Assembly (NCBI GenBank): GCA_964016885.1
Contig: OZ024745.1
Location: forward strand, 17,360,001-17,424,000
Length of the DNA: 64,000 nt
Reading direction: 5' to 3'
From: Eledone cirrhosa
Lineage: Eukaryota
Position 1 is the stretch's first letter; each line of letters begins with the position of its first letter. Of the stretch, positions 984-51,600 are shown piece by piece. Under the pieces are notes generated by a model that was not told the origin of the DNA, ran no database searches, and worked only from the letters and a program-made list of their open reading frames with translations. The position numbers and the translations under genes are program-made.

Positions 984-1150
984 TAACGAAGGAAATGTGG
1001 TACGGAACCATTTGGACCATGACGCATCAAAGTACTCAATACTTAGGGTAGTAGAGTGGGTAATAGGAACGAGTACGACCCCGACGGCTGAGTCCAGAAT
1101 TAGCCGTCGAAACGGCTTGAGCTCAGCCGTCGGGGTCCTACTCGTTCCTA
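984..1150 (-). mobile_element. Short 5'-truncated/inverted copy of the 3' end of the intact PLE (family B)
   Basis: Matches 46371-46480, then inverts (agtccagaattagccgtcgaaacggc...gttccta); flanked by (TA)n. Confidence 0.9.
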
Positions 1151-1203
1151 TATATATATATATATATATATATATATATATATATATATATATATATATA
1201 TAT

Positions 1204-1590
1204 ATGGTGGCTGCCAACTCGTTTTCGAGTACGGCCACTGCTTTATATCCATGTAGGAGAACCCCCACCGATGCGCTGAACGAGTGTGACTTTTTAGTCC
1301 AGCCAGCGACTTAAAAGCTCTGGTACAAACATTACACTTGTGACAATTATTGACACATAGTGCTGCGCCCATGGTACCATGTGATGACAAGTGCAGAGAG
1401 ATCTCCAGATATAAAGCAATGCCTGTGCCGTGAAGCTTTTATAGTGAGCAGAGGCACTGCACAAAGCCAGTCCCACTCTCTTAACCAAGATGATATTTAC
1501 CAAAAAGAAGAACAAGTCAACATCATTGGATACCATCAGGGTTGCAGGTGTTATATCAGAGTTTTCCTTCTCCTAGAATTCTGCCTTGAC
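1204..1590 (-). mobile_element. 3' remnant of a non-LTR retrotransposon (RTE-like) with C-terminal C2H2 finger
   Basis: Minus frame reads CNVCTRAFKSLAGLKSHTRSAH, resembling the C-terminal finger of RTE-type ORFs; otherwise decayed. Confidence 0.55.
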
Positions 1591-2100
1591 AAAGGCTAAG
1601 GGATCATATATATATACATACACACACACACCCACACACACATATATATATATATATATATATATATATGTGTGTATATACATACATATAAATGTGTGTG
1701 TGTGTGTGTGTGTATATATATATATATATATATATATATATCTATATATATATATAATATATATATATATATATATAATATAAAACGAAAAATCAGTTAT
1801 GCATCTGACTCAATTTATTGTGTGTTACAGCTGCTTCGCCGGTGGATATGATCATGGTGTGGATCTGTCTGATTCTGGACACGCAGGTTCGACGGACACG
1901 TCTATTGATGTCAGAGCAAATTCTTTCACTGGTGTATTACCGTCAAAAACTTCATCCACTTCGTGTTATTGGCCGCTGGTTGTCTACGTCATCATAATTC
2001 TGACCACAGAGATCGTTCGGCTGACCATCAGCTGTCCCATGTCTGCCACACTTCAATGAATTACTGGTGGGTTTGGTAGTTCACACGTCCTCGCGCGCAC

Positions 2101-47680: not shown

Positions 47681-49834
47681 CTACCCCCCCGGGTCATTAT
47701 GGGGTTTGAGGGCGAGGTAAGTCCTACGCAATCTATGTTTACATGCAGTAACCAGTTCATCTTTCTTGTTTAGGAGTTGGTCCGTCGAAAACAGCATTTG
47801 TAAAGTTTCCTCCGAGCATAAATTGCACGGACGGCGTCCTCCCGTGTAAGAATTGGCTCTGGACAGTAATCTCCAAGTGAGATCATAGGTGATGTTGTTG
47901 TCCTTGAGGTCCCATATGTGGCCCGAAAGTGTAGTGGCGTGACGCCGGGCCGGGTTTCGGAAGGTATGTCTATGTTGGTATAGCCGGGTCTTGAAGTCAC
48001 ATGCGGTAAGTCCTATATAGGCTTTGTTGGAGGTATCCGTCCTCACGTTGCACTGGTAGATCACATTACGGTCTCTGCATCTATTGTCGAGTGGGCAAAT
48101 AGATCTATCCGGGCAGTTACACCTCCTGGTCGGTTGTCCACTGCTAATTAGGTTATTTCTGCCATCGGGGTTGAGTTTTTTGTTGTTAGAGGAGACGATG
48201 TTTTGTGCGAAGTTTGGTGTAGTGCTGTAAGAGAGTTTGATGGTATTTTTGTTAATTATGTTGTGGTAGCGGTGTTGTAATGGGAAGTGTTTTTCAATGA
48301 GCCTAAAGAATAGTTTCCCGATGGGAGTAGTCACCTCTGCGTTGTGGGGAGGATTGAACCATGTTACATTGCGTGAGCGGCGGTGTCTCCTGCTGGTTCC
48401 GCTAATGGGAGCTGGACAGTAGGATATTACCTCCCGGAAACCACTCCGCTTGAGGGCCTGGTTGTAATAAGGCGCATGTTCATCGAATATCCGCTCAATA
48501 GCTGACAAACGGGATATGCGGAGGGAGATGTTTTTGACCAGGTTGTTTGTGATGTTCCTAGGATGGTTTGATCGGCGGTGGATGTAGTGCAGATTGTCAT
48601 TAGGTTTCCTGTATGGGTAGTACAGGTCGTTTTCGAGGTCGAGGGTTACGTCCAGGAAGTTTACTCGGGTCAGGGACGTTTGTAGGGTTATTTTAAATCC
48701 CCAGTCGCGGAAGAATCTGATTAATTGTTTCCGGACCCGATCTGTACTACTGGGGTTGTACCCTTTAAGGGTAAGGAGCCCATCATCACGGTACAATCCA
48801 CCACCGAATGCAGGAAACATATCAGTGAGTTTGGCTATTAGGAATAATCCTATAAGATCAGTGACCTCCGCCGAATCCGTGGCGCCCATGCTGACGTCGA
48901 AGGGTGAGTCGGGAGCTCTTTTTATCCATTTAGAGTCGTCAAAGAGTAAGACTGTCTTCCTGGCGTGGAGGATGATTTTTCTTTCCTGGTCGGTGATGGG
49001 CACGAGTGTTTCGGCGAAGTCCAAGGCGGCAGTAAGTAGCGGTAAGGTGATAGAAGCATAGTAGCTCTCTATGTCGAACTGTATGAATTTAGTTTCTCGT
49101 TTATCCTCCATATTGCTGAACCAGGAGATTACTTCCTGGGTGTTGATCCATAGGCTAAGTCGGGTGTGTTGCTTGACTTTTGGTATCACGCGGTCTAGGA
49201 TTATTTTGCTGATTCTCCCTATGTCGGACTTCGTAGGGTTAATAAGCCTGATGGAGGGTTTACGGTCAAAATCGGATTTATGGTCCTTCAGTGTGAAGTA
49301 TGGTGTCCGTGGGTCTAGAGGTTCCGTGCGGTCGGCGACCCCGAGGCTGGAGGTGATTAGTTGTCCATCTCGATTTATGTCCTCGATACAAGAGTGGTTG
49401 GCCTTTTTATAGGTGGAGTTTAGGCTGCTCCTGATCAGTGTGTGGTATCTGTCAGGGTTGACAAAGTATAGGTTCCCAGTTTTATCCGAATGCACCATGA
49501 TGTCATTTGTGTTATCATACTCTGTTAAGTTGCTACGGAGTTTTTGTAGGAATCGGTTGTGTCTGGGTTTAAATTTAATGTTCTTGACCAGTTGGAAGAG
49601 GTCATTCTCGAAGGGTGCGAGCAAGGGGTTCAGGGGAGGAGATTTGTAGGTAATAAATCCGAATCTCTCCTTGGTGCCGAAGTCTTGGTTGTCGCAATAT
49701 CTGTCATAGAAAAAAGTTCTCCATCTAAGTCTTTTCGCAAATAGATCAATTTTTTGCGTGAGCATCCGAAGGTAAAGTTTTTTCGGTGGGATTGGGATGT
49801 TCTTGGTAGAGAAGTCAATGTTGTGTTTTCGCAT
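47681..49834 (-). CDS. PLE reverse transcriptase / GIY-YIG endonuclease, 717 aa
   Basis: SDKTG, FIQFDIESYYASI, VSMGA, GGLYRDDGL, NFLDVTL, WFNPP, CNCPDRSICPLDNRC linker, VIY...AYIGLT...RLYQH, CNLC...CKH. Confidence 0.95.
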   Translation of the reverse strand: MRKHNIDFSTKNIPIPPKKLYLRMLTQKIDLFAKRLRWRTFFYDRYCDNQDFGTKERFGFITYKSPPLNPLLAPFENDLFQLVKNIKFKPRHNRFLQKLRSNLTEYDNTNDIMVHSDKTGNLYFVNPDRYHTLIRSSLNSTYKKANHSCIEDINRDGQLITSSLGVADRTEPLDPRTPYFTLKDHKSDFDRKPSIRLINPTKSDIGRISKIILDRVIPKVKQHTRLSLWINTQEVISWFSNMEDKRETKFIQFDIESYYASITLPLLTAALDFAETLVPITDQERKIILHARKTVLLFDDSKWIKRAPDSPFDVSMGATDSAEVTDLIGLFLIAKLTDMFPAFGGGLYRDDGLLTLKGYNPSSTDRVRKQLIRFFRDWGFKITLQTSLTRVNFLDVTLDLENDLYYPYRKPNDNLHYIHRRSNHPRNITNNLVKNISLRISRLSAIERIFDEHAPYYNQALKRSGFREVISYCPAPISGTSRRHRRSRNVTWFNPPHNAEVTTPIGKLFFRLIEKHFPLQHRYHNIINKNTIKLSYSTTPNFAQNIVSSNNKKLNPDGRNNLISSGQPTRRCNCPDRSICPLDNRCRDRNVIYQCNVRTDTSNKAYIGLTACDFKTRLYQHRHTFRNPARRHATTLSGHIWDLKDNNITYDLTWRLLSRANSYTGGRRPCNLCSEETLQMLFSTDQLLNKKDELVTACKHRLRRTYLALKPHNDPGG

Positions 49835-51286
49835 GGTGCGGGTGAAATGAATTGAGCTTAGACCCGGCTATACCAACATAGACATACCTTCCGAAACCCG
49901 GCCCGGCGTCACGCCACTACACTTTCGGGCCACATATGGGACCTCAAGGACAACAACATCACCTATGATCTCACTTGGAGATTACTGTCCAGAGCCAATT
50001 CTTACACGGGAGGACGCCGTCCGTGCAATTTATGCTCGGAGGAAACTTTACAAATGCTGTTTTCGACGGACCAACTCCTAAACAAGAAAGATGAACTGGT
50101 TACTGCATGTAAACATAGATTGCGTAGGACTTACCTCGCCCTCAAACCCCATAATGACCCGGGGGGGTAGACTAGGGCTATAACACCCCAGTTGCCGATT
50201 TTGCAATAGGTAACCCCTGCTTGCCAAGGAAGACGTAAGATCTTCTTTGTATTCTTTTATCGCTTCCTTTATTTCCTTCCCCCCTCTCCCCTTTGTCCTT
50301 CTACCCCAGCTCTTCTCCTTTGTCGGCGTCTTTTCTCGCCCACCCGAGGCTGCCCTTTGGCCCCATGTAGCCTTAGTACCCCCACCCCCCCTCCCCTAGT
50401 CTTTGATAGATTTGGCGGACTCCGCCCTTTATAGCAGCTGGCTTAGACCCCGGATACTTTCCCCCTTTTCCCGACCGCTCCCACTATTCTCTGTGCCCTC
50501 TATATTTCTTAGTGGCACATGCCTTATTTTTTCGTTTCAGTATTTCTTGCTTCGCTCTTCTTCTGGGCGGGGTGGATTCTGAATTTATTTCTCCGTATTC
50601 TACCTTTATTTCGTACGAACTTTCATGTAGCTTGTTTTAGATCTTTTAGAGTTAGCATTAGTATATATTTTTCTCGGGACTCAGAATTATTATCTCGTAC
50701 AAGTTCACTTTGCTGCACTGGGTCGTTGCTGGCCCGGGATGGAAACCTTTATTGTTTATTTCGTGGTAGTCTCTTTAGTATTTTGGCCCCTTTTGTTGAC
50801 CCGTCACCGTATCATTTACGTACTTATACCTCTTAAAAGGGTCCTTGCCTTATCCGTCCCACCTAGTTCTCTTACTTATTTCCTTATTTATTCATTTATT
50901 TATTTTTTTACTTCTTTCTTTCTTTCTTTATTTTATTCTCGCCTAACAATAGCCTGACACCTAGGTCATAGAATTTAATTTACTTTTTCTTTACACTTAT
51001 TTGCCTTTCTTCACTCTCAGTATTTTTTTTTATTTTTATTTTTTTTTTTTTCTTTCCTATTTCTACCCCCCATTGTTCTACCTACCGTTCCGACTTCCTC
51101 CCCCTCCCCCTCCCCTGTATCTTCTTTGACCTCATGCCCAGCTGTAGCTGGCACTACCAACGCTTGATTGGGTCTACTCCACCCCCTCCCCTCTTTCTCC
51201 TACTGGCAGGTTTAGCCACCATCTCCCCTACTAATTTGCAACCACAGAATTACTACTGATTTTTGACAATCACTTTGACCATATAT

Positions 51287-51398
51287 GGAATTACCCCTTG
51301 AGAAGATCGGCTATTTAAATACCAGGATAAATTTTCATTTAGTCCAGAATTAGCCGTCGAAACGGCTTGAGCTCAGCTGTCGGGGTCTTACTGGTTCC
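51287..51398 (+). ncRNA. Type I hammerhead ribozyme, U3:A8 variant, in the inverted arm
   Basis: Stem I acccc/ggggt (extended by ggaa/ttcc), core TTGAGAA(51298-51304), stem II ga(t)cggcta/tagccgtc, GAAA(51359-51362), stem III acggct/agctgt around palindrome tgagctca, GUC with predicted cleavage after 51381. Confidence 0.8.
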
Positions 51399-51600
51399 TA
51401 TATATATATATATATATATATATATATATATATATATATATATATATATATTTATATATACATATATATATATATATATATATATATATATATATATATA
51501 TATATATATATATATATATATATATATATATAAATATATATATATATATATATTAGTGAAAAAGAACAAAGGAACTATTATGACATTATAACAAGTTTAT

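Follow-up and report, generated by a model that had tools for sequence, protein, structure and literature searches.

Insertions of a Hydra-clade Penelope-like element (PLE) in Eledone cirrhosa are built from two head-to-head arms that end at two different fixed positions of the element, here called site A and site B, and each classified two-armed insertion carries one end of each kind. The same predicted bulged hairpin lies shortly 3′ of both sites and is a likely start-position cue for a two-headed copying enzyme. With a probability of roughly 70%, we favor a mechanism in which a two-subunit enzyme would bind both hairpins of one RNA and prime twice, once from each cut strand of the (TA)n target. 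The element was met in a window of 64,000 nt (GCA_964016885.1, OZ024745.1:17,360,001-17,424,000) and followed through the 3.0 Gb genome.

Two-armed insertions pair site A with site B

All negative positions are counted from the ATG of the element unit. Site A lies at -171 and site B at -91, and each overlaps the target by TAT. Genome-wide counts were obtained by exact or near-exact sequence-pattern matching of element motifs. The site A end is joined to (TA)n 7,504 times and the site B end 23,473 times, the site B pattern covering more subfamilies than the site A pattern. A motif of the youngest subfamily that spans site A has 15,634 matches, of which 7,504 is about half, as expected if one arm stops at site A and the other continues. 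Two samples of loci were parsed. Sample 1 comprises 140 loci plus the window, taken from the first matches to three patterns; 12 clusters lying at the edge of a locus and 14 lacking terminal sequence were set aside for the pairing counts. Sample 2 comprises the first 100 site A ends on contig C1, 80 of them new relative to sample 1. Alignment 3′ ends that fall in the terminal region in sample 1 are concentrated at site A (95 of 239) and site B (106 of 239).

Across the two samples, 160 insertions pair an A end with a B end and none pairs A with A or B with B. In sample 1 the inverted insertions number 100. Of these, 85 are A/B as they stand, another 6 become A/B once a frayed end is rescued, and 9 have one unclassified end; a further 35 insertions are single-armed and one has another layout. 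Among the 100 A ends of sample 2, 87 face a B end, none faces an A end and 13 are single or interrupted; in its new loci alone, 69 of 80 are A/B. Three other families give 12 A+B pairs among 13 adjoining head-to-head pairs, again with no A/A or B/B.

Many of the mini-insertions are alike in length (~200 bp), as segmental duplication or amplification of one ready-made inverted copy would produce. This origin is refuted by distinct junction sequences and flanks between copies; the same layout also occurs in subfamilies of ~75-100% identity and in other families, and we consider amplification next to impossible.

In the window, the element is present in four copies. A preliminary description of this DNA had listed three, whose inverted arms (about 60, 80 and 1542 bp) it saw ending at one element base followed by (TA)n. 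That is confirmed, and one segmental duplication as their common source is ruled out by different inner junctions and flanks. The partner arms on the minus strand end 78-80 nt beyond the plus-strand arm ends. The features are as follows.

984-1092, minus strand: copy 1, arm to site B with the 80-nt tail; hairpin A at 1034-1057; inner end at about -200
1091-1151, plus strand: copy 1, 61-nt arm to site A, then (TA)n; inner end at -231
7425-7583, minus strand: copy 2, arm to site B; inner end at about -248
7584-7664, plus strand: copy 2, 81-nt arm to site A, then (TA)n; inner end at about -249
7720-7853, minus strand: fourth copy, absent from the preliminary description, a lone arm to site B without a second arm; hairpin A at 7770-7793
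46371-49861, minus strand: copy 3, long arm; it begins 27 nt ahead of the ATG, runs to site B and covers nearly all of a 3,542-nt unit
46371-46378, minus strand: site B (-91), outer end with 3-nt TAT overlap with the target; internal in tandem arrays
46421-46444, minus strand: predicted hairpin A, beginning about 6 nt past site A and built from a 4-bp RCTC/GAGY helix, a 2-nt 3′ bulge and an inner helix of 4 bp
46450-46457, minus strand: site A (-171), read through by the long arm of copy 3
46465-46558, minus strand: predicted type I hammerhead (U3-A8 core), with cleavage expected between 46470 and 46469 (3′ product from -190)
46506-46513, minus strand: position -231 (A at 46510), the main inner-junction edge and putative RNA 5′ end
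47681-49837, minus strand: open reading frame (ORF) of about 718 aa, reverse transcriptase with C-terminal GIY-YIG endonuclease and the Hydra-clade motifs RWR, DKT, YRDD, CxCX5C, CxxC and CxH, without CCHH
49860-51401, plus strand: copy 3, 1,542-nt inverted arm to site A, 99.8% identical to its partner arm
51293-51386, plus strand: another copy of the predicted hammerhead, carried by the inverted arm, with cleavage expected between 51381 and 51382
51394-51401, plus strand: outer end of copy 3 at site A, followed by (TA)n

By its motifs, the element is assigned to the Hydra clade, which is defined by RW[K/R], DKT, CxCX5C, CxxC and CxH and by the lack of CCHH (PMC8557442). RWR occupies residues 37-39 (a K variant is found in 84 of 115 aligned proteins) and DKT residues 117-119; the CxCX5C linker and the CxxC and CxH motifs around E and N are present, and CCHH is missing. 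An array copy has a single 719-aa ORF with YRDD and VIY…YIG. A Pfam search with the ORF itself gave no match; 2,018 homologs were found at E<=1e-30. The element inserts into (TA)n, and occurs both in tandem arrays with a 3,542-3,543-nt period and in partial tandems of the pseudo-LTR kind. Its two-armed copies show the adjoining inverted truncated copy and one-sided tail of PLEs, the tail being 80 nt and not 30-40. The genome has 56,449 exact matches to one 20-nt terminal motif and 370 matches to the ORF start (up to one mismatch).

The arrays read past the apparent 3′ end for 91 nt further to the ATG, so both arm ends are internal positions of the leader. This alters the preliminary description in several respects. 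It had placed a second priming site about 80 nt inside the element's 3′ end, and that supposed 3′ end is internal, 91 nt before the ATG. Nor is either site simply the second one: among 18 long insertions, the arm with the ORF runs to A in 6 cases and to B in 12. The outer ends, for which it had proposed a histogram, are concentrated at two sites in sample 1. Its core proposal of programmed outer ends is supported, and two separately primed cDNAs are required by the arm geometry treated below. A fixed arm end corresponds to the inner boundary of the known PLE tail and is by itself largely known. Loose (TA)n ends were also seen at site B, and one at site A, in contigs from two sequencing runs, neither recorded as RNA, and two organisms; such ends cannot show RNA ends.

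A predicted bulged hairpin follows each site

The preliminary description took a TA-like site in the RNA as the determinant of the start point. The CGTTAT hexamer of site B recurs 30 nt upstream of it and is joined to (TA)n 20 times, versus 23,473 times at site B. This is one of two control TAT sites within the tail, which are joined to (TA)n 20 and 6 times genome-wide; motifs upstream of the sites and controls are similarly common in the sample (82, 67, 69 and 48). TA-like sequence is insufficient to fix the site.

Shortly 3′ of both sites lies the same predicted structure, consisting of RCTC, an inner helix, a two-base 3′ bulge starting with U, and GAGY (RCTC…TN-GAGY). Hairpin B, which follows site B, lies outside the window copies and is present in loci L037 and L121. 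We collected 43 tail clusters from TA-flanked two-armed elements in the fetched DNA. By majority rule, 16 of the 43 carry the motif 3′ of the short-arm end, against 0.17 expected from shuffles. The hairpin is 2-14 nt from the called site, while the tails of motif-bearing clusters span 75-169 nt. The inner helices are wholly different between families. Among 24 representatives (one of 25 anchors was dropped for lying on the wrong strand), the pair beside the bulge is C-G, U-A, A-U, G-U or G-C, all five of which pair.

The motif was then used for a blind test. Three families were searched for read-through past site B followed by RCTC, with the closing TT-GAGC left out of the query. The closure was found in 10/12, 10/12 and 11/12 loci (31/36), and a Hydra-type ORF start follows hairpin B in all three families. 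Two chance read-throughs in further families match the predicted hairpin B. A protein search for the ORF starts of other families returned only the window-element family among the 150 scored of 8,586 candidates. A marine-metagenome element with 37% identity has the order hammerhead, hairpin A, hairpin B and ATG, and two of its sister contigs stop just before hairpin B. In published consensuses inspected by eye, both hairpins are seen in Hydra-1_Ajap, hairpin A in Hydra-2_Ajap and Hydra-2_Amil, and a wobble variant in Hydra-1_Obim. The predicted motif thus appears in Hydra elements of coral and sea cucumber.

Annealing of (TA)n to TA-like RNA, or else the base of the hammerhead stem, could alone fix the ends, with the hairpins serving translation or transcription control or the like. 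The TAT overlap with the target at both sites and the position of site A against hammerhead stem I agree with this. The identical CGTTAT in the tail is used about a thousandfold less, however, no hammerhead lies beside site B, and the hairpin keeps its close distance to the sites while tail lengths vary. We regard annealing alone as very improbable.

Some tails depart from the motif. Three (L014:2144, L097:2966 and L254:1029), outside the motif-scan count, have TCTC in place of RCTC; in two of them the closing sequence is GAGA, which may compensate for the change in the outer pair. Separately, two-armed TA-flanked families with 38-60-nt tails and two sharp ends have no RCTC/GAGY hairpin (L083:5650, L125:8390, L092:9527 and L084:423); these are possibly another PLE clade with its own signal. 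At L179-L181, the ORF starts of family F1 are expanded to a short tandem peptide repeat.

Inner junctions and the template's likely 5′ end

A scan for CTGANGA and an Rfam search found no hammerhead in the window-element family. An unconstrained fold of -295 to -165 gives a type I hammerhead with a U3-A8 core, a variant published for PLE hammerheads (PMC4209133), and a predicted cut before -190. Its extended stem I ends at site A, and in this predicted form the position given by the preliminary description, at the base of stem I, is borne out. Two sister families have canonical hammerhead cores.

Inner junctions were classified in sample 2 with BLAST bounds where these were longer, as exact-match parsing fails at subfamily variants (e.g. 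-152). They had been expected to scatter. Instead they cluster: the two arms of an insertion mostly finish close to -231, or else share the predicted hammerhead cut as their start. Of 87 insertions, 57 have both inner ends in the interval from -240 to -214, where an edge is seen near -231. In 5 of the 87 the predicted cut marks the beginning of both arms, against 6 discordant insertions (Fisher p=6.6e-5); two long arms are found in 4, against 1 discordant case (p=2e-6). Among the same 87, six B arms finish at site A and three close to the foot of hairpin A, which is what a collision on one RNA would give. The arms starting at the predicted cut are indirect evidence for PLE hammerhead cleavage in vivo.

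Further signs of an RNA end come from non-collinear same-strand joints, 5 of 11 of which restart at -230 to -233 after a piece that ends elsewhere, as if the enzyme ran off at the RNA 5′ end and then jumped. The sequence around -231 is one that we take to resemble an initiator motif. From these junctions we infer a main RNA class from about -231, a minor ribozyme-cut class, and a long or circular class.

Two other causes of the -231 edge were considered. A cut at the GUC near -228 is rejected, as many arms reach -230 and -231. A structural stop of reverse transcription at -231, acting on each arm independently, is disfavored by the concordance of the arms and by long arms that pass -231.

Two loci show repeats of short units. 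At L225 (G000:C1:27009442), one arm is made of repeated -234 to +23 units, which suggests end-to-end jumps or a small circular template. At G000:C2:356029973-356031790, seven ORF-start matches recur at a 299-bp period; this tandem may be a leader-only, retrozyme-like derivative.

A proposed mechanism: one RNA primed twice

The favored mechanism starts from what the sequences show: fixed ends, strict pairing of A with B, a hairpin motif that is conserved, and arms that have both their source and their stop in common. The protein would bind the two hairpins in its own RNA's leader, and its endonuclease would nick both (TA)n strands. Each nicked 3′ end would then pair with a short U/A-rich stretch just 5′ of a hairpin. 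The B-primed enzyme would mostly displace the A cDNA, sometimes halting at hairpin A or site A. Both cDNAs would reach the RNA 5′ end, either at about -231 (likely the transcription start) or at -190 (the ribozyme cut), and their 3′ ends would join head to head through 0-5 nt of microhomology. With start sites so close to the 5′ end of the RNA, most products would be 200-bp minis. For a long copy to arise, the template would have to be a read-through, circular or end-jumped one.

Arm similarity was compared in 67 insertions. In 62 of them the distance between the two arms is smaller than their distance to the median other copy. For copy 3, the arm distance is 0.001 versus 0.034 to the median other copy. 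Overlap and nesting were scored in 80 simple pairs, of which 73 overlap and 7 do not; in 20 of the 80, the A arm extends upstream beyond the end of the B arm by more than 8 nt. A single folded-back cDNA cannot yield these 20 longer A arms, so two separately primed cDNAs are needed.

That result bears on a rival which combines proposals of PMC3846280 and PMC8557442, namely fold-back or self-priming of a single cDNA, possibly made on an antisense template, after which the endonuclease would cut the resulting hairpin at TA-like sites and leave a one-sided tail. It would account for arms that nearly always have a common source and for junctions that are often nearly symmetric, and the endonuclease does favor AT-rich DNA (PMC11167929). 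Yet folding back nests the short arm in the long one, contrary to the 20 longer A arms and the 7 pairs without overlap. Arms from the predicted ribozyme cut indicate a sense RNA template, and other TAT sites are barely used. This explanation has little chance of being correct.

A second rival keeps both primings and the hairpins and assigns one RNA to each subunit, with an asymmetric dimer enforcing one A and one B start. Overlap in 73 of 80 pairs would then need no strand displacement, and a single active source locus per germ cell could yield matching arms. It poorly explains the 9 of 87 B arms that end at site A or hairpin A, the 5 insertions with both arms from -190 (p=6.6e-5) and the lack of A/A or B/B among 160 pairs though each RNA has both sites. 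The shared stops and the collision-like B ends favor one RNA primed twice over two RNAs, and we judge the use of two RNAs unlikely.

Several points weigh against one doubly primed RNA. It requires strand displacement or sequential use of the template for the 73 overlapping pairs. Two RNAs of one transcription burst would also share a source and often a 5′-end class, and gene conversion between inverted arms could inflate their likeness. Two of 15 insertions with more than 250 shared bases, and one more at 193 bases, lack uniquely close arms. Of 26 long arms, a single one has its stop near -231 of the upstream unit, and a second class of template is therefore needed for the long copies. The dimer and its binding to the hairpins are inferred, and hairpin folding is predicted. 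By majority rule the motif is absent from 27 of 43 tail clusters, including all with 39-60-nt tails, and it is degenerate by eye in the published consensuses Hydra-1_Amil and Hydra-1_Crog. Inner stems of hairpin B often have 1-2 pairs only, and the strand signal in the hairpin is weak (7 G-U vs 3 A-C). The samples come mostly from contigs C1 and C2 and were selected by sequence patterns. Finally, the Poseidon element of Anolis carolinensis shows in vitro no difference in start site between strands and does not need ribozyme cleavage (PMC11167929).

A broader form of the favored mechanism would extend to Hydra-clade PLEs of several animal phyla. The duplicated hairpin would act as a two-address landing code by which a dimeric reverse transcriptase-endonuclease on one RNA makes an obligatory A+B twin-primed insertion; 5′-proximal priming and ribozyme-cut or end-jumped templates would explain the tail, the inversion, the minis and the partial tandems. 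We give this extension an even chance. If it is true, any RNA with the hairpin pair would insert into (TA)n.

Other features of the window

Two-armed TA-flanked minis of other families lie at 45402-45859, 11147-12136 and 143-951, with fixed tails of 91, 89 and 116 nt; hairpin A is present in the first two and not in the third. ORF fragments of at least five other PLE families occur at 16484-17185 (plus strand), 22400-22993 (minus), 29863-30522 (minus), 54029-55267 (minus) and 63119-63838 (plus), and most carry the Hydra-type endonuclease region. A 1,015-bp inverted pair with 98.7% identity is formed by 15492-16506 and 17193-18203. Minimal hammerhead-like cores of the canonical CTGANGA form lie in other repeats at 3545, 4408 and 10751, all on the minus strand.

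A 262-aa open frame at 59086-59874 (minus strand) matches Pfam Sulfotransferase_1 (E 2.6e-38). It lies inside a TA-bounded segment (56429-60279) that ends in a short arm of another Hydra family. The frame could be a host exon or captured sequence.

Comparison with known systems

In the twin priming of L1, each of the two target strands primes a cDNA on the RNA, and microhomology joins these cDNAs head to head; one strand uses the poly(A) end and the other a variable internal site, and the arms do not overlap. The element described here works similarly in joining two primed cDNAs head to head. It differs in having two fixed internal sites and arms that overlap in 73 of 80 pairs, and thus does not take the L1 form.

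A one-sided 30-40-bp tail and an adjoining inverted 5′-truncated copy are standard features of PLEs (PMC8557442, PMC3846280). The tail has been ascribed to endonuclease resolution (PMC8557442) and to self-priming (PMC3846280). Our insertions share with these accounts (PMC8557442 Fig. 2, PMC3846280) the head-to-head arms and the extension on one arm only. Their tail is 80 nt, or 75-169 nt in motif-bearing clusters, in place of 30-40. The tail is also optional in the published accounts, whereas here there is one per two-armed insertion, with arms that are often not nested.

The closest parallel in mechanism is Anolis carolinensis Poseidon, for which Frangieh et al. 2024 (PMC11167929) found in vitro that the tail is the stretch between two internal starts of reverse transcription, that both target strands are cut and extended, and modeled a dimer. 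The genomic ends reported here fit a tail bounded by two internal starts; extension of both strands and a dimer would be further points in common. The Poseidon sites lie in the ORF, at an AC-rich stem loop and without target homology, whereas ours lie in the leader, before a duplicated hairpin and with a 3-nt target overlap. Ribozyme cleavage is unseen in the Poseidon reads, while some arms here have their start at the predicted cut. The accessible portion of that paper's main text does not report how starts pair within single events. The preliminary description had overlooked the published tail and the two internal starts (PMC8557442, PMC3846280, PMC11167929).

With the Hydra clade of Craig et al. 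2021 (PMC8557442), which has a hammerhead in the terminal repeat, the element shares the C-terminal GIY-YIG, the motifs and the (TA)n target. It differs in its unit of 3.5 kb, compared with the usual <3 kb, and in the U3-A8 core of its predicted hammerhead. The accessible portion of that paper gives no account of paired hairpins, tail lengths or a pairing rule for the clade. Pairs of hammerheads on opposite strands, 100-700 bp apart, are known from Schistosoma (PMC4209133). Retrozymes have been linked to PLE repeats in a preprint whose accessible portion adds nothing on ends (bioRxiv 10.64898/2026.07.22.740005). A literature search, with older subscription papers outside it, turned up no account of the paired hairpins, of the A+B rule or of stops that agree between arms.

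For the inverted repeats and one-sided tails of PLEs, self-priming, endonuclease resolution and two internal starts have all been proposed. A family with 56,449 exact terminal-motif matches gives counts that separate those models. Strict A+B pairing, the insufficiency of the TA-like site, the hairpin motif and the clustered, concordant inner junctions go beyond the published accounts found. Paired hairpins would explain the one-sided tail long seen on PLEs. The hairpin, short and conserved, lends itself to deletion, relocation or transplantation, which makes the question directly testable. To the known tail and internal starts, the present analysis adds a pairing rule, a duplicated RNA motif that distant Hydra elements have conserved, and evidence for a shared template, and thus a specific, testable mechanism.

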